NCBI GenBank assembly: GCA_902762905.1
Contig: CACWQE010000006.1
Coordinates: 113-64,112 of the forward strand
Length of the DNA: 64,000 bases
Direction: 5' to 3'
Origin: an uncultured Lachnospiraceae bacterium
Lineage (GTDB): Bacteria; Bacillota; Clostridia; Lachnospirales; Lachnospiraceae
The position numbers and the translations under genes are program-made. The notes beneath the pieces were generated by a model. It was not told the origin of the DNA and made no database searches. It saw only the letters and a program-made list of their open reading frames with translations. Shown here piece by piece: positions 3,918 to 24,617 of this stretch (within the stretch, counting starts at the first letter, position 1; each line of letters starts with the position of its first letter).

Positions 3918-3937
3918 TGTAACAACTATTAACAGAT

Positions 3938-3973
3938 AAATGCCCTATCCGAATGGAGTTGGATAGGGCATTT
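3938..3973. terminator. Hairpin between the convergent EamA gene and the ABC operon
   Basis: Arms AAATGCCCTATCC and GGATAGGGCATTT form a 13-bp perfect stem with a 10-nt loop. The T-tract is weak (TTTGCTAT). Confidence 0.5.
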
Positions 3974-4168
3974 GCTATATGTGATCCTATGTAATGTATA
4001 TGTAAGAAGCTGTCGAGATCAGTCTCTTGCATAGTACCGGATAATGCAGGGGACATTACCGGCTTTCATTGACATAGGTTGTCACCCGGTTTTGGATGAT
4101 CTTAGCGGTTTCGTCTGATATGACATTAGAAATTGTAGTGGAATTTCCTTACATAAGTACATCATTCT

Positions 4169-4798
4169 CTATAAAGATTGAAGTTGACCATTTTCAATTT
4201 CATATACTTGATCACAGAGAATATCAATATCTTCCCGATTGTGACTAGTAAAAAGTATAGTTTTTCCCTCTTTTTTATAATTGAGGAGTAACGATCGCAT
4301 TTGTTGAGTTCCCTCTCGATCAAGACCATTGAATGGTTCATCTAAAATTAATATTTCAGGATTTTCCATAAAGGCTTGTGCCAGACCAAGTCGTTGTCGC
4401 ATACCGAGAGAATATTTTTTGACTAGTTTATTTCTATCTTGATATAGTCCTGTAGCTTGAAGGGCTTGTTCAATTTCATCTTTTCCAATCTTGTTTTTTA
4501 ATTTAGCTAACATAAGCAGATTTTTGTAACCACTGTAATATGGTAAAAATCCGGGTGTTTCAATAATAAACCCCATATTTTCTGGAAAATCAATGTCCTT
4601 TCCAATTTCTTTTCCCTGTACAAAAATTTTTCCTGTAAATGTATTATGAAAGCCGCAAATACATTTCATAAGCATGGTTTTCCCTGAACCATTTGTTCCA
4701 ATCAGCCCTGTTATATCACCTTTATTAGCTATAAATGTTATGTCATGTAGAATTTCCTGTTTATGATATTGTAAATAAACATGTTGTATTTCAATCAT
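4169..4798 (-). CDS. ABC transporter ATP-binding protein, ABC-2/LanF-like
   Basis: Walker A is GTNGSGKT, the signature is YSLGMRQR (the SLGMxQR variant typical of lantibiotic/bacitracin-type protection ABC ATPases), Walker B is ILILDEP and the H-loop is TSH. Confidence 0.85.
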   Translation of the reverse strand: MIEIQHVYLQYHKQEILHDITFIANKGDITGLIGTNGSGKTMLMKCICGFHNTFTGKIFVQGKEIGKDIDFPENMGFIIETPGFLPYYSGYKNLLMLAKLKNKIGKDEIEQALQATGLYQDRNKLVKKYSLGMRQRLGLAQAFMENPEILILDEPFNGLDREGTQQMRSLLLNYKKEGKTILFTSHNREDIDILCDQVYEIENGQLQSL

Positions 4799-4818
4799 AT
4801 TTGACCTCCGTAAAAATA

Positions 4819-5685
4819 TTAATTTTGGGAAAGAATATCCAAATGGACACTTGTTGCTTTCTTAAGAATAGAAACATAGATCGTCACAATTAATACTCCG
4901 AATAATAGTAAAGAATTTGAAGGAGAAAAGGCATATGCTCTATAATAATCTTGATAGTGTATCCAAAGGATGGAATGACTGATAGGAAAACACCATTTTT
5001 GCGGGGTGTCTATGGTACAAAAGGCAATTCCAATTATAATATTTGCAATAATTAACCAATACCCAATCAGTTTTCGCCCATATAAAGCAGCCCATAGTAG
5101 GAGGCCGCTCCATAGAATAAGTGACAGTCCAAGTAATAGATATGATAGAGCAAATGCTTTTCCGGGAGTCATTTGAAGGTACAGATTCGGCGGTAATAAG
5201 CTTGACATGCCGATTGATCCATCATTAATATACTTTGAATCGTAATCTGTTGCAACAAGACTCCATGCATTTGCTAAATAGGAAACATGACTGGTTTGTA
5301 TCAGCGTAGTAATAATAATAAACGAAATATATGTCAGAAGACTGGTAAATTGAAATACAATTTCCCCCAATATCCAATTGCATCTTCCTGCTCTAGAAAG
5401 AACAAAGCACATATTAGCATCCATACAGGGAAAATCTGCCATTAATGTTAGATAGGCAAATGGTATCAATAACAGAATTAAACCGGAATTGGCTAAAGAA
5501 ATACACGGTTCTAATATGTTGAGGGGTTGTTGCATCTTATTCGCACAATCTAATATAGGAAGAATAATAGTTTCTCGCAAAGGGACAATTAAAACAAAAA
5601 ATAAAATACTTTTGGGGCTACTAAGCCAACGAATGTATTCTGTCCGTGCAACAGCATATATTGAATTTAAGTTATATTTTGTCAT
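4819..5685 (-). CDS. Polytopic membrane protein, putative ABC-2-type permease subunit
   Basis: The 288-aa product has about 6-7 hydrophobic helices. Its start overlaps the stop of the upstream gene, and it is followed 20 nt later by the ATPase gene. Confidence 0.55.
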   Translation of the reverse strand: MTKYNLNSIYAVARTEYIRWLSSPKSILFFVLIVPLRETIILPILDCANKMQQPLNILEPCISLANSGLILLLIPFAYLTLMADFPCMDANMCFVLSRAGRCNWILGEIVFQFTSLLTYISFIIITTLIQTSHVSYLANAWSLVATDYDSKYINDGSIGMSSLLPPNLYLQMTPGKAFALSYLLLGLSLILWSGLLLWAALYGRKLIGYWLIIANIIIGIAFCTIDTPQKWCFPISHSILWIHYQDYYRAYAFSPSNSLLLFGVLIVTIYVSILKKATSVHLDILSQN

Positions 5686-6395
5686 ATTCCGACCTCCCTA
5701 ACACGATATTTCCAGATTTGGAATCCAACGGCGATAGATAATATTAGGAAAAAGAATGAGGAAGCAACTACATGATTTAAAAAAATATTTTGCATAATAT
5801 AATTTAGTAAAAAAGGAAGAGATAATACAACATATTTACTTGAAAAAATTCCTGCAAATGTCCATGCACACGAAGACATTGCAGCACCCCACAACATCAT
5901 TTGCAATATTAAAATAAACATATTTTTGACTTGAATCAAAAGGGAATCCTGTACACCCACAGCTTTGAGTGCTCCGTATTTTGCATCTATAGGAAACATA
6001 CATTTTGTAAATAATGCGTATATAATAAGTCCTGTACCAATAAGAAGTCCACCGCATAGTATAACACGAAAGTAGGATCTTTTTATATAGTTGTACAAGC
6101 CAATGCGTCCTATGCTAAAGCGATAAAAAGAAGTATATTGTTCATCTAAGAATATAGGTATAGTTGGTATTGCAGCCAGAATCGGTAATAGCAGAATAAT
6201 CCAACTATTAAGTCCAGCAGTAAATGCAGTGTACCAACTATATCTTGTGGAATTCTGTGAAGATACAGAAAATGCTATTTCCGCCACTGAATAGTTTCTA
6301 CCGTTCATATTTGTAATTGTGCCGGTCATACAAGTTAATGTAACTGCTAATATACCAATTATAAAATAGAATACATTTATTCGTGTATGTTTCAT
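5682..6395 (-). CDS. Polytopic membrane protein, putative second ABC-2-type permease subunit
   Basis: The 237-aa product has about 6 hydrophobic helices. It overlaps both neighbouring genes by 4 nt. Confidence 0.55.
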   Translation of the reverse strand: MKHTRINVFYFIIGILAVTLTCMTGTITNMNGRNYSVAEIAFSVSSQNSTRYSWYTAFTAGLNSWIILLLPILAAIPTIPIFLDEQYTSFYRFSIGRIGLYNYIKRSYFRVILCGGLLIGTGLIIYALFTKCMFPIDAKYGALKAVGVQDSLLIQVKNMFILILQMMLWGAAMSSCAWTFAGIFSSKYVVLSLPFLLNYIMQNIFLNHVVASSFFFLILSIAVGFQIWKYRVREVGI

Positions 6396-7585
6396 TTTAA
6401 TGTAAATCCTTTCTCGTTTATATTGGTTGTAACTTCTCCGGTTATCATATTGACATTAATATAACAATAATGATTACCCTCAGAGATTCCAATAGATGAG
6501 TTATCCTTACTATATTCAATCATAAAAGAATATACTGGTGTTCCTGTTACTGTATTGCCTGATGCAGCATAGTATTTCGTGCCACTCGTATAGTCGTAAT
6601 CTACATAGAGCGCATACAAGATTTGTATATCGGCAATTGTAATTTTCTGAAATCCAGATAATGTGTGTTCTACAATTTGTACCGCAGTTGGAAAATCAAT
6701 GACTTCTGTTTGTTCTTCAGAAGCATTAATAGATAACATTCCGTTATTGTTAAATCTGGAAATTTGATTTGGCTGTGTAAGATCAAGATTAATATAATTG
6801 TCCATCTGACGAACATATGGATTGCCGTCTTTTTCCTCGATTCCACCACCAAAATAATCTAAAGAAATCCCTTTGTATTGCCACTGAGCCTGCATGGATA
6901 AATAGTAAGTCCCGTTTTGACGTTTACGAATATATACGGTTTTGATAGGATATGTATAATCATTATCTAGAAGAGGACACCTCAAAAGCCATGTATTGAC
7001 ATATTGTATCTGATCAATAAGCGTAGTCGTTTGTCCATCAATTGCGCAAGCAATTTTTAAATTATTCTCTTTTTCGGGATATATTATATCTGTTATTTGA
7101 TTTGGCATATCAAGTTCCATATCATCATAGCTTTGATCGGAAATATATGAGATAGTGCCATTATTTCCAATAAAAAAATATTTTTTCTCAGTGGCATTTT
7201 CGTATACGACACCTGTATCTCCTTGTAGAGCACCTTCATAATTTTGCCAATTGGGATGAGGGATATCCCAAATTGCTGAATATTCCCCTTTTTTTGAAGA
7301 CATTTCAACAGGAAAGGACAACTTGAGAAGATCAATTTCCTTCACATTAGAAAAATCAATATTTGATGGAAGATTAAGATTTTGAGGTGTGAAAGAAAGC
7401 ATATCAATCGAACTTTGTCTTAGTTCTGAGATGGTACAATAATTTAACGTTGTTTCTTCCATTTGGTTGTTTTCTTGATATTTGCTTTTGCGTTCCAAAA
7501 CTGCAGTTGGTGCCTGCTGACATGCAGCCAGCAGGCATAATATACAGCAGACACACAGTATAAAATACACCTTTTTATTTGCCAT
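6392..7585 (-). CDS. Lipoprotein of unknown function
   Basis: The signal peptide ends in the lipobox LLAAC. The mature part is Asn/Tyr/Gln-rich and I recognise no domain in it. Confidence 0.7.
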   Translation of the reverse strand: MANKKVYFILCVCCILCLLAACQQAPTAVLERKSKYQENNQMEETTLNYCTISELRQSSIDMLSFTPQNLNLPSNIDFSNVKEIDLLKLSFPVEMSSKKGEYSAIWDIPHPNWQNYEGALQGDTGVVYENATEKKYFFIGNNGTISYISDQSYDDMELDMPNQITDIIYPEKENNLKIACAIDGQTTTLIDQIQYVNTWLLRCPLLDNDYTYPIKTVYIRKRQNGTYYLSMQAQWQYKGISLDYFGGGIEEKDGNPYVRQMDNYINLDLTQPNQISRFNNNGMLSINASEEQTEVIDFPTAVQIVEHTLSGFQKITIADIQILYALYVDYDYTSGTKYYAASGNTVTGTPVYSFMIEYSKDNSSIGISEGNHYCYINVNMITGEVTTNINEKGFTLK

Positions 7586-7599
7586 GTGTGTACTCCTTT

Positions 7600-7986
7600 T
7601 TAATAGGTTAAACTACCTGAAGGGTATGAGTTTGAACTTCCCGTACTTTGAAAATTAGCAGATGCATATATCGCAGTTCCTTTTGTTGTTTGTACAGATG
7701 ATGAACCGCTTCCTGAATATAAAGCTGCAATACCGTTACTTGTATAAACCATTATAGTAGCACCGCCACCAACTTTTGATACTTTCATCGTTGTTGTACC
7801 ACATGTTGTAGTTACACTTTTACTCCATGATGAGATCTGATCTGATCCCGGGGCTCCTTTAATATATCTTAAACTCCAGTCCTTTGAAGCAGCTTGAGTG
7901 TTTACACCCGCCATACATAATAAGCATGCCATTAAAGATGCTACAACAAATAAATTTTTAGATATTTTTTTAATATTTTTCATCAT
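7600..7986 (-). CDS. Small secreted Ser/Thr/Gly-rich protein of unknown function
   Basis: The track ORF begins at a TTG. I prefer the ATG at 7986, which is preceded by GGAGGA. It carries a Sec signal peptide (MMKNIKKISKNLFVVASLMACLLCMAGVNTQA|AS). The mature product is about 95 aa and is predicted to be beta-rich. Confidence 0.7.
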   Translation of the reverse strand: MMKNIKKISKNLFVVASLMACLLCMAGVNTQAASKDWSLRYIKGAPGSDQISSWSKSVTTTCGTTTMKVSKVGGGATIMVYTSNGIAALYSGSGSSSVQTTKGTAIYASANFQSTGSSNSYPSGSLTY

Positions 7987-8254
7987 ATGAATTTCCTCCA
8001 ATATCTTGAAAATAGTTAATATACATGTTACAATATGATTTGCAATTTTTGGGGGCTTTCTGCAATCTTATCTCATTAAGAAAACAGAAAGCCTTATTCA
8101 ATTGGTGGACTATCTTCCATTGTACTCCCCCTTTCTTTATGATAATCATCCCCTGTCAACCGTCGCCCCGTACTTATGTTTCATTGTAACAGATTTGATA
8201 CGCAATGAACGTTTTCGGGGGCGAGTGGTCGATATTCAGAGGTGAACAGTAATT

Positions 8255-8425
8255 TTATTTACTATTCTTAGTGTGATTGAGTGCAAATTCTGCAAAACCA
8301 TCCGGTTCTTTTGGCTGATAATACATACCTCTACACACAGAAACTGTAACTGTTGCCAACGCAATTGCTAGATTGCATAGTTTTGCACCGTGCTTGTACA
8401 TAAATGTGGACATCCTTTTTCTCAT
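8255..8425 (-). CDS. agrD: AgrD-like autoinducing-peptide precursor (56 aa, absent from the ORF track)
   Basis: Hand translation gives MRKRMSTFMYKHGAKLCNLAIALATVTVSVCRGMYYQPKEPDGFAEFALNHTKNSK. AAAGGAGGA lies 6 nt upstream of the ATG. The product has a basic/amphipathic N-terminal region, a Cys-containing pentapeptide (CRGMY) directly followed by YQPKEP and a charged tail, and the gene is adjacent to agrB. Confidence 0.75.
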   Translation of the reverse strand: MRKRMSTFMYKHGAKLCNLAIALATVTVSVCRGMYYQPKEPDGFAEFALNHTKNSK

Positions 8426-8490
8426 ACATAGTCCTCCTTTTCATATGTATTGTCCAACTTTATAATCGAACAATCAAATTGTAACACTTC

Positions 8491-8530
8491 ATTCACACTG
8501 ATTGACAAAATCACTGACGAATTGTCAAAA
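8491..8530. promoter_or_regulatory. Imperfect 20-bp direct repeat, candidate LytTR-regulator binding site in the divergent agrD/agrB region
   Basis: ATTGACAAAA (8501-8510) and ATTGTCAAAA (8521-8530) are in 20-bp register. On the minus strand the units read TTTTGACAAT..TCAGTGA and TTTTGTCAAT.CAGTGTGA. An extended -10 (TGTTACAAT, 8478-8486, minus strand) lies downstream. Confidence 0.45.
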
Positions 8531-8578
8531 ACAGGGGACGAAATGCATTGATATAATCTTTTGCATTTCATCCCCTGT
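8531..8578. repeat. Inverted repeat with 17-nt arms (hairpin or palindromic operator) between agrD and agrB
   Basis: Arms ACAGGGGACGAAATGCA and TGCATTTCATCCCCTGT are complementary at 16/17 positions, with a 14-nt loop that contains TATAAT (8552-8557). Read on the minus strand the hairpin is followed by TTTTTG. Confidence 0.6.
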
Positions 8579-8696
8579 TTCTGACCTTTCATCTGGTATA
8601 TGTTATATGTAATTTTCCATATGCTATAATCCCCTTTATAAAATGTTTGCAATACTATATTGCCAACATATAAAAATAAAGGAATGAGGTGCTTAC

Positions 8697-9287
8697 ATGT
8701 TGCTATCCGATCGAATCAGTAACCAGCTTACACAAATATGTATTGACAATCACGTCATAGAATCCGGCGAAAAAGAGATATATCATTATTGTTTTTCCTA
8801 TTTCTTTGATATCCTGTTATACAACATGAACATCTTACTACTCGGTCTCCTGCTGCACCGACCTTTCCAGGCCTTGTTATTTACCACTGTTACCTTTCCA
8901 GGCAAAACCCTTGCCGGTGGTGCACACGCCTCCTCCCCAGAACGATGTCATATTATTTCCTACGGATTATTTCTAATTAGTTTATGGATTGTGAACCGTT
9001 ATTCTATCTCCAAAATATCTGCTATAATCATTTATAGCATTGCCTGTGTTATTGTAATTCACTTAGCACCCGTGGATCACCCAAACAAGCGATTTGATTC
9101 CGAACAGAAACACAAGTTACGAATTGCCTGTCACATCTTTATTATTCCGGTAACCCTTGTATTTTGTGTTATGATTTGTTTTAATAAGATTATCTACTAT
9201 AATCTGATCACGCTATGTATTGTAATCCTCATGTGCAATCAGATCATTGGAATTTTGCAGAACAGGAGGTATTCACATGAAGCTTAA
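8697..9287 (+). CDS. agrB: AgrB-family accessory gene regulator B (AgrD-processing membrane peptidase)
   Basis: The 196-aa polytopic membrane protein carries the AgrB signature region LAGGAHASSPERCHIIS, with the catalytic His and Cys at the expected spacing. Confidence 0.85.
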   Translation: MLLSDRISNQLTQICIDNHVIESGEKEIYHYCFSYFFDILLYNMNILLLGLLLHRPFQALLFTTVTFPGKTLAGGAHASSPERCHIISYGLFLISLWIVNRYSISKISAIIIYSIACVIVIHLAPVDHPNKRFDSEQKHKLRIACHIFIIPVTLVFCVMICFNKIIYYNLITLCIVILMCNQIIGILQNRRYSHEA

Positions 9288-10011
9288 TATTGCCATATGT
9301 GATGACGAGAACCGCATATTAACACATACCTCGTCCCTAATTGACATATATCAATTTCAGCATTTAGATACGAACCTTTCTGTTGATTGTTACACTTCAG
9401 GCGAATCTTTATTAGAGAATTATACGCAACCTCGACAATATCATATTCTATTACTTGATATAGAGATGCCCGGGATGAATGGGATTGAAACTGCACGACA
9501 GATACGTAATACAATTGACCGGAATGCCATTATTGTATTCATCAGCAGTTATCCAGAATATATGCAGGAAAGTTTCTCTGTCCATCCTTACTTCTTCCTG
9601 CAAAAACCTGCAACCCAGAAAAATATGAATCAATTATTAGACGAGATTATAGATGAGATTACCAATTCCACACATATGTACACGCTCATAGATATGGAAG
9701 ATATCCAACATACCATCTATCTCAACGATGTACTCTATATCCATACCTACAATGCCCGGAAAGAATTGCTATCTTTTCATCTTCCGAACAAAGAACTTCA
9801 TACAAAAGGACACCTTGGGGAATGGGAAATGAAACTACAGAATTATCATTATATCTCCTGTTATCGGGGATATCTGGTGAATCTGACTCACATCCACTAT
9901 GTGACAAAGGATCAGTTAATCTTAGACAATAACGAAGCCATTCCTTTAAGCCGCACAAACCGCAAACGTATCCACCAACTCTTCTTAGATCAGGTTGTTA
10001 CAATAGAGTAA
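9277..10011 (+). CDS. LytTR-family response regulator (AgrA-like)
   Basis: The product starts MKLNIAICDDE, has the receiver motif LLLDIEMPGMNG and a C-terminal LytTR domain. The ATG at 9277 follows AGGAGG and overlaps the agrB stop by 11 nt. Confidence 0.9.
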   Translation: MKLNIAICDDENRILTHTSSLIDIYQFQHLDTNLSVDCYTSGESLLENYTQPRQYHILLLDIEMPGMNGIETARQIRNTIDRNAIIVFISSYPEYMQESFSVHPYFFLQKPATQKNMNQLLDEIIDEITNSTHMYTLIDMEDIQHTIYLNDVLYIHTYNARKELLSFHLPNKELHTKGHLGEWEMKLQNYHYISCYRGYLVNLTHIHYVTKDQLILDNNEAIPLSRTNRKRIHQLFLDQVVTIE

Positions 10012-10027
10012 CCGGAAAGGAAAACTT

Positions 10028-11356
10028 ATGCATTATATTCTTACTGTTATATCCTGTATATTTGACGCTTTTATCATTCTGACATATATGAACGGGATCT
10101 TTACAACGCGTAAAAAAGAGGTATCTAGCACTATATTTTATCTGTCTTTTGCTATAATGGAAGTGCTATTATTATGCAACAATTATTCGTTCGTAAAATT
10201 AGATTCCAACACATCCGTAGTTTTCACATCACTGCTCAGTCTCACAACCAATTTCTGCCTTACCCTTTTATACGAATCGAATTGGAAGGAACGTCTCTTT
10301 ACCTGCATTTCATTCCAGTTTTTCTCTCTATCATCCGAATATTTGTTAACAGTTGTGGTGAATCTTATTAAACCAAATCTATCACAATTACTGGGTGTTT
10401 CTACATTTATCGCCATTATGGGAACATTAAATGAAATATCTCTATTTGTAATAGTCCTACTCATCATTTCTTTCTGGAAACGGCAATTCCAGCAATACCC
10501 AAAAGAATATAATGGTCTTCTTTTTGTCACACCCTTTATTACTCTCCTAATTCTGTTGTCTGCACCAATGTCACAGAATAATGCCGTACATTACCGATTC
10601 TTTTTTGAATCACTCTGCACCTTGCTATCCATATTGAACCTCTGCAATTATATCTTATTGCAACGCACATTCCACTATGCGCAATATCAGTTAGAAAATG
10701 CACAATTATCAAAGCAGATTCAGTTTCAGGAAGAGAAATACCAACAAATCGGTGCCGCATATCAGAACTGCCGCCGTATCGTACATGATGTAGACAAGCA
10801 ATATCACACACTCCAAGAACACCTGAGTCACAAATCATATCAGGAACTAGAAGCATTCCTGTCCAATGCCAAAGCTGACTTGAAAGCCAACTCTACAAAA
10901 TATAACACAGGAAATCTGGTCATTGATTCCTTTCTGACCAACTATGATATTCTCGCCCAGAATCACAATATATCATTTGAATCCATTCTGAACGTGGATG
11001 CCGCAGATATTCCTCTCAACGACTACGAATTAAGCATTGTATTAGGCAACCTATTGGATAATAGTCTGCATGCCTGTCAGAAACAAGCTGCACCAAGACG
11101 GTATATTCATATTCATATAGTAACAACCGGGCAAAAACATTTCATAATCAACATCCGCAATACCAAAACGCCAGTTATTCTGCCAAATGTTCGTCCCTCT
11201 TTTCCGGATCTTTCACATGGATATGGTCTTGAAAATGTCAAACGAATCGTAGAAGCCAAATATGGCACAATCGGTTGGGAAGATAACGATGATACCTTTA
11301 TTGTAAAACTCATGGTACCAATCTTTAAGAAAAAGAAAGGACGTTATCTGTATTAG
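10028..11356 (+). CDS. AgrC/ComD-type (HPK10) sensor histidine kinase with a GHKL ATPase domain
   Basis: The 442-aa product has an N-terminal half of about 6 TM helices and a C-terminal ATPase domain with an N-box (NLLDNSLHAC) and a G-box (GYGLENVKRIV). Confidence 0.85.
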   Translation: MHYILTVISCIFDAFIILTYMNGIFTTRKKEVSSTIFYLSFAIMEVLLLCNNYSFVKLDSNTSVVFTSLLSLTTNFCLTLLYESNWKERLFTCISFQFFSLSSEYLLTVVVNLIKPNLSQLLGVSTFIAIMGTLNEISLFVIVLLIISFWKRQFQQYPKEYNGLLFVTPFITLLILLSAPMSQNNAVHYRFFFESLCTLLSILNLCNYILLQRTFHYAQYQLENAQLSKQIQFQEEKYQQIGAAYQNCRRIVHDVDKQYHTLQEHLSHKSYQELEAFLSNAKADLKANSTKYNTGNLVIDSFLTNYDILAQNHNISFESILNVDAADIPLNDYELSIVLGNLLDNSLHACQKQAAPRRYIHIHIVTTGQKHFIINIRNTKTPVILPNVRPSFPDLSHGYGLENVKRIVEAKYGTIGWEDNDDTFIVKLMVPIFKKKKGRYLY

Positions 11357-11371
11357 TTCCTTATTATATTG

Positions 11372-12421
11372 CTATGCCCGGATCGCCCAGCGTAATTTTG
11401 TGGAACGTGCTCTTGGATTCCGGTTACATTCTTCCGCGAAAGGACGTGTTACCTCCTCCGAAATATCAGAATAGATTCCCTGTTTCTTTCCCTGTTTCAG
11501 TGCTTTCTTCACCAGACGGTCTTCTCCCGAATGGAACGTAAGAATTGCTACTCTGGCTCCCGGAGCCAACACCTCCGGCAGACTATCCAGAAAGCTGTAT
11601 AACACTTCAAACTCACTGTTTACATCAATCCGAAGTGCCTGAAAACATCTCTGGCAGGATTTCTTCACTGCCTCTTTTCGGTCTTTGACCGGAACAAATA
11701 CCAATGCCTCCTCAATCACATCCTTAAAATCAATGGTTGTATGGATCGGTCGTTTCTTTCTCTTCCATTCCGTAACCTTAGCCGCAATCTCCGCTGCATA
11801 TGGTTCATCCGAATTCTCCTGCAACATTCCGATCAGTTCTTCCTCTGTTACTTCGTTGAGCCTCTCATATGCCGGTGTTCCCTGTTCCGGGTTCAACCTC
11901 AGATCCAACGGGCCTTCTGCCTTATAAGTAAATCCCCGTTCCGGGTTATCAATCTGCATGGAAGATACCCCAAGATCAGCCAATACAAAGTCAAACTTAC
12001 CAACCTCTTCCGACAACTGTGCAATATTTGCAAAGTTCATCTGCCGAATGGTAAGGATCTCTTCTCCATACCCTTTCTCTTCTAACCGTTGCTTTGTCTT
12101 CTTACTCTCAATGGGATCTACATCCAATGCATAGATATGTCCCTTTCCCTGCAGACACTCTAACATTGCTTTCGTATGTCCCCCATACCCTAATGTTGCA
12201 TCCAACCCAAGCTCTCCCGGCTGAATCTTCAACACATCAAGAATCTCTTTGACCATAATGGATATATGCATTCCCGCCGGGGTACTTCCCTTACGGATGA
12301 CTTTCTCAATCGTATCCTGATATTTCTCCGGATTCTGTTCCTTGTACTTCTCCGCAAACGTCTTTGGATGTGTTCCACTATATCGTTTCCGGCGCTTATG
12401 CACCTGTTCTTTTTCTTCCAT
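11372..12421 (-). CDS. RsmH/MraW-family SAM-dependent methyltransferase paralog with a basic N-terminal extension
   Basis: Recognisable motifs are DATLGYGGH, DLGVSSMQID..RGF, FHSGEDR and NPRARSTKLR. A Lys/Arg-rich extension of about 50 aa precedes the core. No dcw-cluster genes are nearby. Confidence 0.75.
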   Translation of the reverse strand: MEEKEQVHKRRKRYSGTHPKTFAEKYKEQNPEKYQDTIEKVIRKGSTPAGMHISIMVKEILDVLKIQPGELGLDATLGYGGHTKAMLECLQGKGHIYALDVDPIESKKTKQRLEEKGYGEEILTIRQMNFANIAQLSEEVGKFDFVLADLGVSSMQIDNPERGFTYKAEGPLDLRLNPEQGTPAYERLNEVTEEELIGMLQENSDEPYAAEIAAKVTEWKRKKRPIHTTIDFKDVIEEALVFVPVKDRKEAVKKSCQRCFQALRIDVNSEFEVLYSFLDSLPEVLAPGARVAILTFHSGEDRLVKKALKQGKKQGIYSDISEEVTRPFAEECNRNPRARSTKLRWAIRA

Positions 12422-22463: not shown

Positions 22464-24617
22464 TTATGGGAGGTTATATCCCGCTGCCTGATACAATTCA
22501 TACCATTCTTTCCGGTTCAGATGTACATCCGTTGCATCACATAACTGTTGTAAATGTTCCGGATTCATTGTACCGACTAAAACCTGCATATTTGCAGGAT
22601 GCCGCAAGATCCATGCAATCGCAACCGCCGACTTCGTTACACCATTTTCTTTGGCAATCCGCTCAAGAACCGCATTCACTTCCGGGAACTTCTCATTGTC
22701 TACAAAATTGCCTTCAAAAAATCCATACTGTAACGGCGACCATGCCTGAATTGTAATATTGTGTAACTGACAATAAGTAAGTGTTGCCCCATCCCGGTCA
22801 ATTGCTCCATCTGTCAGCATGTTATTCTCAATTCCCTGCCGTATCATTCCCGCATGCATCAGACCAAACTGCATCTGGTTCACCTGTAATGGCACTTTAC
22901 ATACGGATTGAAGTAACTCCATCTGCCCTGCATTAAAGTTGCTCACACCAAACCGCTTGACTTTACCTGTCCGGTACAACTGATGCAATGTATCCGCAAC
23001 TTCCTCTATATCCATCAATGCATCCGGGCGGTGTAACAATAACAGATCAATAAATTCTGTCTGTAACCGTCGCAGGCTGTCATCTACCGAAGACAGAATA
23101 TGGGATTTGGAGAAATCATAATACCCCTCCCGGATTCCACACTTCGTCTGAATCCGCATTCTTTCACGCATTCCTTTATTCTGCGCTAATGCCTGTCCAA
23201 AGACTTCTTCACTTCGTCCACCACCATAGATATCTGCATGATCAAATAAGGTTACTCCATGATCTAATGCCACATTGATAAGTTTTGACACCTCAGATAC
23301 TGTCAGATCTGCCATACGCATACAACCAAGACCAATGCGGCTGGCATCCATGTTCGAATCCCCGATCTCCATTGCCATATCGCCACCAAGCGGTTTCACA
23401 GACTTACTCTCATATCCGACTGTATCCGCTACTTTATTCGCCATCCGCATAAGAATATTGCGGTGTGTCTTAATGACATGGAAGTAAATGTTCTCCACCT
23501 TGTCTGCAAACTGCTGTGTTGAAAACTGCTCTACGCTCTCCATGGCATTGTGGCTATAATCAATATTCTGTGGATTCTTCAAAACCGAATCCATTCCTCT
23601 TGCAAACGTAGTTTCGTCTACAAATTCATATCCATTCCTGCCCTCAAACAGCACACCATCCAGACACGGATCTTTCCTCGCAACCACCGGAATTCCAGAA
23701 GCTAATGCCTCAATGTAAGTAAGCCCCTGTGTCTCACTCGTTGAACCGGATACAAATACATCTGCCACCTGATAATAGTGTGTAATCTCATCCCATGGTT
23801 TCGCACCGGCAAATATCATTTGCTTCCGGTGTTTCATACCTCTTGCCTGACGCTCTAACGTCATCCGCTGTGGTCCATCCCCTACTACTAAGAATGTAAC
23901 ATTCGGATTGGTATCCATATAGCGGTTCAGATACAACATGACTTCATCAATATTCTTCTCGTCCGACACTCTTCCTAAGTATAATACTACTTTATTATTC
24001 TCTGGTATTCCAAGAGCAGCCTTTAACCGGTTCTTCTGCATTGCCGTATCACGTGCCTCAAACCGGCTTAAGTCAATTCCGGTTGGAATGACATTAATGT
24101 CCGGTTTCACACCATACTGCCGCATCAGATCTGCTACTTTCTCCGTTGGCACGATCAATTCCTCTGCACCACGTACACTGAATTTGCTAAACATCTTAAC
24201 AAATGCTTTGGCACGCTTCTCGCTGGATATATATTTCTTAATATAATGTGTATAATCCTCGTAAATTGTGTGATAGGTGTGAACTACCGGCACAAATAAT
24301 TCATGTGCCATAATACGTCCAAACATACCAATGGCAAATTCTGTGTTCGTATGGATGATATCTAACTTCATCTTGTGGATCTTTCTCGCAATCTTTGGAT
24401 GATAGAATAATCCGACCCGTCGTTCCGGCACAAAGGAACATGCCTTAGACGGCACACGAAAAACACCCTTCTCATTCATAGGTGCGTCGGGTGTCTTGGT
24501 TGTGATCACATATACGTTATGTCCCTTTTTCTCTAATACTTTCTTAAGCAAATATACGGAATTGGCTACTCCATTCAATTCCGGATAATAGGTATCTGTA
24601 AATAATCCTATATTCAT
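22464..24617 (-). CDS. Two-domain protein: GT4 glycosyltransferase (residues about 1-385) fused in frame to an aldo/keto reductase (residues about 400-717)
   Basis: The N-terminus MNIGLFTDTYYPELNGVANSV and the downstream E..G.. motifs match GT4 (diacylglycerol glycosyltransferase-like). The C-terminal IGLGCMRM...LFDHADIYGGGRSEE...RFGVSNF matches the AKR family. No stop codon separates the two parts. Confidence 0.8.
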   Translation of the reverse strand: MNIGLFTDTYYPELNGVANSVYLLKKVLEKKGHNVYVITTKTPDAPMNEKGVFRVPSKACSFVPERRVGLFYHPKIARKIHKMKLDIIHTNTEFAIGMFGRIMAHELFVPVVHTYHTIYEDYTHYIKKYISSEKRAKAFVKMFSKFSVRGAEELIVPTEKVADLMRQYGVKPDINVIPTGIDLSRFEARDTAMQKNRLKAALGIPENNKVVLYLGRVSDEKNIDEVMLYLNRYMDTNPNVTFLVVGDGPQRMTLERQARGMKHRKQMIFAGAKPWDEITHYYQVADVFVSGSTSETQGLTYIEALASGIPVVARKDPCLDGVLFEGRNGYEFVDETTFARGMDSVLKNPQNIDYSHNAMESVEQFSTQQFADKVENIYFHVIKTHRNILMRMANKVADTVGYESKSVKPLGGDMAMEIGDSNMDASRIGLGCMRMADLTVSEVSKLINVALDHGVTLFDHADIYGGGRSEEVFGQALAQNKGMRERMRIQTKCGIREGYYDFSKSHILSSVDDSLRRLQTEFIDLLLLHRPDALMDIEEVADTLHQLYRTGKVKRFGVSNFNAGQMELLQSVCKVPLQVNQMQFGLMHAGMIRQGIENNMLTDGAIDRDGATLTYCQLHNITIQAWSPLQYGFFEGNFVDNEKFPEVNAVLERIAKENGVTKSAVAIAWILRHPANMQVLVGTMNPEHLQQLCDATDVHLNRKEWYELYQAAGYNLP

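Follow-up and report, generated by a model that had tools for sequence, protein, structure and literature searches.

What does the agr-type quorum-sensing system control that is encoded by a block of nine genes (positions 4169-11356) in a 64-kb stretch of DNA from a Lachnospiraceae metagenome-assembled genome? The whole stretch of 64,000 nucleotides is called the window here. The block consists of a five-gene cassette and agrD on the minus strand, and of agrB and the genes for a LytTR response regulator and an AgrC-type histidine kinase on the plus strand. agr genes are common in Lachnospiraceae, which are the third-largest source of AgrD among Clostridia in one RefSeq survey, and only 43 peptides from six species have been characterised (PMC12180512). 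In the literature searched, we found no description of what agr systems control in gut commensals. For the locus in the window, we propose a complete agr circuit with a built-in output operon, in which a small secreted protein would be the density-controlled payload and a lipoprotein and an ATP-binding cassette (ABC) transporter would serve in self-protection or in handling of that protein (probability about 0.5). Control of the cassette by the LytTR regulator in this genome is likely, and this regulatory half of the proposal is well supported by the comparison of sequences from related loci; we infer co-transcription with agrD, density dependence and the function of the cassette. The nine genes, their coordinates and the gaps of 14, -4, -4 and 20 nt that separate the cassette genes in order were all given correctly in an earlier note on this DNA, as judged by an open reading frame (ORF) check (Table 1).

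The genes for AgrB, AgrD, the LytTR regulator and the AgrC-type kinase are genuine agr parts. AgrB scores 106.8 bits against PF04647 (Pfam cut-off 23), and its motif GGAHASSPERC places a histidine and a cysteine seven residues apart, which we take to be the same spacing as that of the catalytic His77 and Cys84 of Staphylococcus aureus AgrB. The predicted ring of the AgrD peptide, the boundaries of which we infer, is C-R-G-M-Y, followed by YQPKEP. The agrB and regulator genes do overlap, as had been claimed, by 11 nt with the 244-aa start of the regulator, which is also the start given by gene callers on conspecific contigs. The kinase carries HATPase_c_5, as is typical of AgrC-type kinases, and its N-terminal half is membrane-spanning, with at least five hydrophobic segments within residues 1-181 according to hydropathy. 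AgrB, AgrD, an HPK10-type kinase with a LytTR regulator, and pairs of direct repeats are thus all present, placing the locus in agr-type quorum sensing. The canonical single operon agrB-agrD-agrC-agrA is not the layout here, since agrB, regulator and kinase follow one another on the plus strand and agrD is alone on the minus strand. This order had been described correctly as B-A-C with agrD opposite, but calling it rearranged makes too much of it, as relatives show almost every order.

Between agrD and agrB lie 271 bp of intergenic DNA in which 9-bp direct repeats, 12 bp apart (21-bp phasing), form two pairs that mirror each other. On the agrD side, the pair ends 32 nt upstream of an extended -10 element, TGTTACAAT (8486-8478), and on the agrB side 31 nt upstream of TGCTATAAT (8622-8630), so that both strong box pairs lie 31-32 nt from a TGnTAnAAT element. 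When at most two mismatches are allowed, nothing in the 64-kb window matches the box-pair pattern apart from these two sites, which face each other within the intergenic region. Repeat pairs and extended -10 elements together have the geometry of LytTR-dependent divergent promoters, to which binding of the regulator is predicted. S. aureus agr has the same four protein families, with a LytTR regulator acting on 9-bp direct repeats paired across a 12-bp spacer, and its P2 and P3 are likewise two divergent autoinduced promoters in one intergenic region, one for signalling and one for output. In contrast to S. aureus, the gene order here is B-A-C and agrD is on the output side, where it occupies the place of RNAIII, and instead of a regulatory RNA, the output is an operon that encodes the secreted protein, the lipoprotein and the ABC transporter. 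The box in the window, CWWTTCRTC, is presumably unlike the AgrA consensus. The two 30-bp elements together form a palindrome with 32-nt arms; the predicted transcription starts lie outside it, so that the palindrome is probably not an RNA element. Matches to microRNA precursors on 8515-8604, the only Rfam matches, were rejected as an artefact of this DNA palindrome.

A composite motif, defined as a box pair with up to five mismatches followed by 29-34 nt and then TGnTAnAAT, occurs four times in the window versus 0.09 times expected in shuffled sequences, and three of the four matches are in this locus. Two are the defining sites themselves. The third is a weaker pair (8249-8220) that lies 31 nt upstream of a second extended -10 element TGTTACAAT (8191-8183). 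The fourth (24343-24411, plus strand, five mismatches) is antisense inside a 717-aa glycosyltransferase/aldo-keto-reductase fusion gene (22464-24617, minus strand) and was taken as chance.

The contexts of the cassette in other lineages were obtained from look-ups of the encoding contigs, one genome scan and one metagenome scan, with annotation by tblastn and Pfam. All named sources are Lachnospiraceae (Roseburia, Agathobacter, Jutongia and Frisingicoccus), and the five-gene cassette is a conserved Lachnospiraceae-specific module. A four-gene core, encoding the lipoprotein, two membrane proteins and the ATPase, is constant in order, and the small gene stands in front of it in a subset. Direct linkage to agr or LytTR genes was found in six of the ten lineages that have the small gene and in none of the six that lack it. 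The six linked lineages show five gene orders. agrD heads the cassette, divergent from agrB-regulator-kinase, in the window; in the closest relative, L058 (permease 53% identical), the same agrD-cassette unit is divergent from kinase-regulator-agrB. L020 has agrB, agrD and the cassette closely packed, the small gene being preceded by a gap of 13 nt (the contig extends upstream for only 132 nt), and L023 has agrB-agrD-cassette divergent from regulator-kinase. The cultured Agathobacter ruminis JK623 (L025) carries regulator-kinase-cassette with no agrBD nearby, and in L026 an agr locus comes first, then a second regulator-kinase pair and finally the cassette. By alignment, the AgrD core of the window (CRGMY/YQPKEP, the slash marking the end of the predicted ring) is clearly related to those of L058 (CLGFM/YEPKKP) and L020 (CAGFI/YQPRRP), and the L023 core (CAFLW/GEVEMP) is different from all three.

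Strong direct repeats with 20-21-bp phasing precede the transcription unit of the small gene in five of these six loci; L020 has only a weak 6-of-9 candidate, found by eye. Upstream of agrD in L058 is a perfect repeat, GTCGTTCGC-N12-GTCGTTCGC, and upstream of agrB-agrD-small in L023 are the 18-nt repeats TGCCGTTTGTGTCGTTTT and TGCAGTTTACGTCGTTTT, with 14 positions matching. Directly 5' of the small gene, L025 has the 14-nt repeats CTAATTTCGCCATG and CTATTTTCGCCATG, which differ at one position and are followed by TGCTATAAT, and L026 has the 11-nt repeat TTTTCTGCAAT twice. A TTCG(Y)C core is common to the boxes of the window, L025 and L058.

The lineages without direct linkage comprise, with the small gene, a second A. 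ruminis copy (L010/L024), L014, L017/L022 (Roseburia) and a human-gut lineage (L029, L033-L051) and, without it, three copies in L021 as well as L028, L030 and L055; in L028, an agr locus lies 7 kb from the core and faces a different module. A neighbour-joining tree of the permease places the linked loci in three separate clades, with unlinked ones interleaved. The association between agr and the cassette is either old and often lost, or has arisen repeatedly, and both histories argue for a functional link and not for chance. The proposal of the earlier note that agr is wired to the five-gene block therefore stands insofar as the two abut or are fused recurrently in six lineages, but the link is frequent rather than obligatory. 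The same holds for the gene-neighbourhood survey that was suggested there as a refutation test: the co-occurrence is found in six lineages but is not exclusive, as the cassette also exists without agr.

Taken together, the locus could work as follows. AgrB would process AgrD to a cyclic thiolactone peptide with the predicted ring CRGMY, which the AgrC-type kinase would sense, phosphorylating the LytTR regulator. The regulator would bind both mirror-image repeat pairs and activate the two divergent extended -10 promoters, one for agrB-regulator-kinase and the other for agrD. A scan for consensus terminators found no terminator-like site between agrD and the small gene, so that transcription most likely continues into the five cassette genes, and the weaker box, which has the same geometry, may add to expression just 5' of the small gene. 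The small protein would be secreted and be antagonistic (bacteriocin-like) or surface-acting, and the lipoprotein and transporter would protect the producer or handle the protein at the membrane. The transporter itself would consist of two unrelated membrane proteins, of about six helices each, and a LanF-like ATPase. A GC-rich hairpin between the convergent EamA and ATPase genes, seen in the fold of 3918-4168 (minus strand), is likely the end of the cassette transcript and may terminate in both directions; it was not called by the consensus terminator scan, as it lacks a strong T run.

Table 1. Features of the agr/cassette locus. Positions refer to the window; aa, amino acids.
Feature	Position	Strand	Description
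agrB	8697-9287	+	196 aa; AgrD-processing membrane peptidase; PF04647 at 1.1e-30
LytTR response regulator	9277-10011	+	244 aa; 11-nt overlap with agrB; Response_reg 2e-13, LytTR 9e-14
AgrC-type histidine kinase	10028-11356	+	442 aa; GHKL domain; HATPase_c_5 at 1.3e-14
agrD	8255-8425	-	56-aa autoinducing-peptide precursor; TIGR04223 22.8 bits (cut-off 19)
Small secreted protein	7600-7986	-	128-aa precursor; signal peptide, predicted site between TQA and AS, read from the sequence
Lipoprotein	6392-7585	-	397 aa; lipobox LLAAC; mature protein acidic, pI 4.5
Membrane protein, putative permease 2	5682-6395	-	237 aa; five or six predicted membrane-spanning segments (hydropathy)
Membrane protein, putative permease 1	4819-5685	-	288 aa; six predicted membrane-spanning segments (hydropathy)
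ABC transporter ATPase	4169-4798	-	209 aa; signature YSLGMRQR; PF00005 at 2e-28
Candidate autoinduced agrD promoter	8478-8545	-	CATTTCGTC-CCCTGTTTTTGA-CAATTCGTC (8545-8516; middle = N12)
Candidate autoinduced agrB-regulator-kinase promoter	8564-8630	+	CATTTCATC-CCCTGTTTCTGA-CCTTTCATC (8564-8593; middle = N12)
Possible second, weaker LytTR-dependent promoter	8183-8249	-	CTGTTCACC-N12-CCACTCGCC (8249-8220); five mismatches to consensus
Hairpin with 17-bp arms	8054-8093	-	in the agrD-to-small-gene spacer; no T run, hence not a canonical terminator
Sigma-70-like promoter candidate	8018-8045	-	TTGCAA-16-TATATT directly 5' of the small gene; consensus match only
GC-rich hairpin	3938-3973	-	between the convergent EamA and ATPase genes

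The mature small protein has approximately 95 residues (9.7 kDa, pI 9.6), of which 49% are Ser, Thr or Gly, and no conserved cysteine. Eleven homologues have mature parts of 96-101 aa, and all are cationic (pI 9.1-10.0). AlphaFold gives an eight-strand all-beta sandwich, with predicted local distance difference test (pLDDT) values of 76-89 over the mature part. Foldseek returned no match at E ≤ 1e-3 for this model, and the 50 matches listed are generic sandwiches, i.e., carbohydrate-binding modules, pre-peptidase C-terminal and GOLD domains and endospore-appendage subunits. The sole match in a profile search of PDB sequences was weak (a DNRLRE-domain protein, E 0.045), and none of ten family members has a Pfam match. 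A metagenome scan with a small-protein pattern found nothing, and a 74-sequence alignment was too diverse for deriving a search pattern.

The lipobox cysteine (Cys22) of the lipoprotein is invariant in 74 homologues, and its homologues are all acidic (pI 4.1-5.6). The family comprises 237 clusters at 50% identity in a search of 1.84 billion proteins. Pfam DUF6034 is matched by 3 of the 74 relatives (best 1.3e-6), and the DUF6034 entry is presumably similar in size to the lipoprotein family; the window protein itself has no DUF6034 match and no relatives in Pfam, NCBIfam or PDB. An AlphaFold model made from five sequences was poor and unusable (pLDDT 44.7). A PepSY reading of the C-terminal 'NVxMxTGEV' was dropped, there being no Pfam PepSY match in the protein or in the 74 homologues. 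In one conspecific contig (L064, 7234-8411), the lipoprotein gene is split into ORFs of 158 and 238 aa, which is either a frameshift (pseudogene) or an assembly error. In the human-gut lineage (L033-L051), the small gene is followed by one to three tandem lipoprotein paralogs before the membrane proteins and ATPase (e.g., L050 2353-6452, L047 2708-8043 and L035 8265-14892), and copy number varies among near-identical contigs; the flanks of these loci, which extend up to approximately 10 kb (L051), showed neither agr nor LytTR genes.

The 288-aa protein is the best-conserved of the cassette-specific proteins, and its family numbers at least 900 clusters (90% identity), all annotated as hypothetical. 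In profile searches, neither membrane protein matched a Pfam family, including ABC-2, or gave a significant PDB match; a profile comparison with an ABC2_membrane protein gave a probability of 1.4%, and relatedness between the 288-aa and 237-aa proteins was not detectable (hhalign probability 3%). The amphipathic 'IYAVARTEYIRW' stretch at the start of the 288-aa protein is similar, at the level of pattern only, to the N-terminus of an ABC-2 permease in L017. The SLGMxQR variant of the ABC signature reported in the earlier note is present, as YSLGMRQR. The best NCBIfam match of the ATPase is the lantibiotic-protection family TIGR03740, at 162.8 bits or about half of the cut-off of 309.75, and cassette ATPases of other loci are 48%-61% identical to it. 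The lipoprotein, the two membrane proteins and the small protein have no match in Pfam, NCBIfam, PADLOC or PHROGs; the only matches in PADLOC and PHROGs are those of the generic ATPase to ATPase models. The structure and profile check of four cassette proteins that had been recommended thus produced a beta-sandwich model for the small protein, but no specific structural neighbour and no significant PDB match.

A role of the small protein as a secreted antagonist is favoured by several of these properties. Loci are linked to density sensing only where the small gene is present, and the small protein is conserved, cationic, Sec-exported, unmodified and of approximately 10 kDa. The ATPase is nearest to protection-type ATPases, and copies that consist of the core alone, like the tandem lipoprotein arrays of variable length, look like immunity loci that have been orphaned or expanded. 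It is well known that HPK10/LytTR systems can regulate bacteriocins, and the analogy to an effector with self-protection, as in LanFEG/LanI, is plausible. More tentatively, and rather doubtfully, the small proteins might be an unrecognised class of unmodified Sec-exported antagonists of gut and rumen Lachnospiraceae that are under agr/LytTR control and countered by a new immunity pair. The pair would combine the acidic, DUF6034-related lipoprotein with an ABC transporter of a new type, and copies without the small gene and tandem arrays would be orphan immunity loci.

A number of observations weigh against the proposed circuit and payload. The box consensus CWWTTCRTC was derived from the two strong sites in the same region that it describes, so that the third composite site is the sole independent evidence, and weak. 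No cassette protein resembles a known bacteriocin, immunity protein or ABC-2 permease (Pfam, PDB and Foldseek). The spacer between agrD and the small gene is long (268 nt) and structured (fold z = -3.1), and owing to the sigma-70-like match within it, the cassette could be transcribed independently. Together with the occurrence of the cassette without agr elsewhere, this spacer and the TTGCAA-16-TATATT match (8045-8018) directly 5' of the small gene would agree with an adjacency that has no regulatory meaning, agrD having ended up by chance upstream of an operon with its own promoter, in a low-G+C, recombination-prone stretch. We consider this improbable, as the modules are adjacent in six lineages and five gene orders, including the fusion with a 13-nt gap in L020; moreover, LytTR repeats stand directly 5' of the small gene in L025 and L026, agrD has no terminator after it, and promoter-like matches in the AT-rich region are no commoner than in shuffled sequences (43 versus 38.4 ± 6.6). 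The spacer also contains an 8-codon ORF, MEDSPPIE (8094-8120, minus strand), with a strong ribosome-binding site, AAAGGGGGAG, and the hairpin with 17-bp arms directly after it; this arrangement may be an attenuator-like or leader-peptide element, or may be due to chance.

A further point against is that, in about half of the cassette lineages, agr genes are absent within 8-10 kb. It also speaks against a cassette that is part of the signalling machinery and exports, re-imports, sequesters or degrades the peptide, with the lipoprotein as binder and the ABC transporter as pump. Such a role would fit the four lineages in which agrD or agrB-agrD heads the operon, and to our knowledge the membrane crossing of mature agr peptides is not fully resolved. 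However, L025 has a regulator and kinase without agrBD, and the conserved small secreted protein would be left without a role, making a part in signalling very unlikely.

The principal alternative starts from the core, which is far more numerous without the small gene than with it (at least 900 permease clusters versus a handful of small-protein clusters). The core may be an envelope-protection or antimicrobial-peptide resistance module that is placed under various sensors (extracytoplasmic function (ECF) sigma factors, OmpR-type, LytTR and agr systems) with BceAB/LanFEG-like logic, the small protein being an accessory, e.g., a surface-binding or sensing partner. In keeping with this, the unlinked loci L017 (~9870-9905) and L021 (~9895-9930) share an element, GGAACC-N16-GTCTAATAT, that looks like an ECF sigma-type promoter and would fit a role in envelope stress at least as well as a bacteriocin role, which also counts against an antagonist. 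L021 has an ECF sigma/anti-sigma pair (8529-9828) just before one copy of the core and an OmpR-type two-component system before another, and Sigma70_r2 genes lie directly downstream of the cassette in agr-linked L058 (7422-9178, then a DUF4179 protein) and in L057 (13438-14630). The ATPase is nearest to lantibiotic-protection and drug-resistance ATPases. Against a resistance module, the restriction of agr/LytTR linkage to loci with the small gene (6 of 10 versus 0 of 6) suggests that what is regulated is the small protein, as the payload; it is usually the drug, and not the cell's own density signal, that induces a resistance module, and no homology of the membrane proteins to BceB/FtsX or ABC-2 permeases was found. 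On balance, we regard a resistance module as possible, if somewhat unlikely.

The proposed circuit with a built-in payload operon shares elements with several known systems. In Enterococcus faecalis, fsr is an agr-type cyclic-peptide system that directly activates Sec-exported products, namely gelE-sprE and EntV (ef1097), and EntV is antimicrobial. EntV, however, is unrelated to the small protein in sequence or fold, and fsr is not known to have targets fused to the signal gene or a dedicated lipoprotein/ABC unit, whereas both features are present here. The same parts list as in LanFEG plus LanI (ATPase, two membrane subunits and lipoprotein) is found in the cassette, and the best match of its ATPase is the lantibiotic-protection family. 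In contrast to LanFEG/LanI, the ATPase reaches only about half of the family cut-off, the membrane proteins match no ABC-2 family and are mutually unrelated, and the ATPase gene is last and not first; the lipoprotein is unrelated to LanI-type proteins, and we take it to be four to five times their size. No lantibiotic genes are present near the block in the annotated flanks, which encode ClpB, EamA, an rsmH-like methyltransferase, Nth and thiamine genes. The likeness in layout to LanFEG plus LanI immunity systems that the earlier note pointed out could therefore not be extended to family membership, with an ATPase below the TIGR03740 cut-off, permeases without an ABC-2 Pfam match and a lipoprotein without a LanI relative.

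Lactococcin 972 (Lcn972) loci likewise have the gene for a small cationic, unmodified, Sec-dependent all-beta protein beside genes for an ABC ATPase and a membrane protein, but the membrane components differ from those in the cassette. There is no Lactococcin_972 Pfam match, lactococcin 972 is absent among the 50 Foldseek matches listed (all with E > 1e-3), and we know of no lipoprotein or quorum-sensing genes described for Lcn972. The class II bacteriocin regulons pln, spp, cbn and blp also have a peptide signal, an HPK10 kinase, a LytTR regulator and direct repeats before operons for secreted antagonists, immunity and transport. They differ from the window locus in that the pheromone here is of the AgrD/AgrB and not of the double-glycine type, a C39-peptidase exporter is absent, and the payload is a 10-kDa Sec substrate. 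In the literature searched, we found no paper that deals with DUF6034 or with a lipoprotein/ABC cassette linked to agr in Lachnospiraceae, and within that literature the view that the arrangement is undescribed holds.

The block is more AT-rich than its surroundings, as had been estimated by eye: G+C is 0.30-0.39 over 4000-11000 versus 0.42-0.47 in the flanks. The accessory island that had been suggested on these grounds is not shown, however. In two look-ups (17 and 18 contigs), every conspecific contig has the same arrangement wherever it reaches that far, and no empty site lacking the block was found among them, so that the block is not visibly an insertion polymorphism. The gene adjoining the block on the kinase side is an rsmH-like Methyltransf_5 gene (349 aa; 11372-12421, minus strand) with a basic N-terminal extension of approximately 50 aa. 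A 66%-identical copy lies 17 nt 3' of the cassette ATPase, on the same strand, in A. ruminis (L010/L024, 13295-14362). In the window and in A. ruminis, it is placed and oriented differently with respect to the cassette, and it could be residual synteny or a functional neighbour.

Several other loci are of interest in their own right. In L028/L032 (317-8760), agrB-regulator-kinase is divergent from another module, encoding a 493-aa lipoprotein, a 380-aa protein, a 669-aa membrane protein and a 300-aa ABC ATPase, which is a second architecture with the same logic; a small-gene-less relative of the cassette follows 7 kb on. In L026 (5167-7206), the genes after agrB-agrD encode a signal-peptide protein of 171 aa and a protein of 205 aa, both without a Pfam match, and precede the second regulator-kinase pair and the cassette; here too, agrBD heads secreted-protein genes. 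A close core relative without the small gene in L055-L057 (6627-11496; permease 46% identical, 621 member sequences) has a gene for an AI-2E_transport (PerM/TqsA-family) protein 5' on the same strand and a FliB_C-domain gene 3'. Four human faecal virome records named 'UNVERIFIED Bacteriophage sp.' matched the permease, including L066 (MT835572.1) and L067 (MT835787.1). Carriage by phage was rejected on the one record examined in detail, MT835787.1, which is a fragment of a bacterial chromosome with pgk, tpi, gpmI, rnr (RNase R), prs (phosphoribosyl-pyrophosphate synthetase) and engA around the cassette, and these bacterial genes show the phage label to be misleading. There were no permease matches on plasmids.

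Departures from the canonical agr gene order are commonplace in Clostridia, and a secreted effector under density control, accompanied by genes for transport or immunity, is an established design. What appears to be new are payload families without Pfam entries or literature, and their recurrent physical fusion to agrD or agrBD. For gut and rumen Lachnospiraceae, the locus thereby offers a first candidate for what agr signalling controls, one that is physically linked to the signalling genes and has predicted regulator-binding sites, and a cultured relative, A. ruminis JK623, carries the link, making it testable there. If the small protein is an antagonist, abundant gut bacteria that produce butyrate would have a new family of secreted protein weapons, together with immunity genes. 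Otherwise, the cassette would still be a widespread Lachnospiraceae-specific lipoprotein/ABC module, with an indication of the signals that control it.

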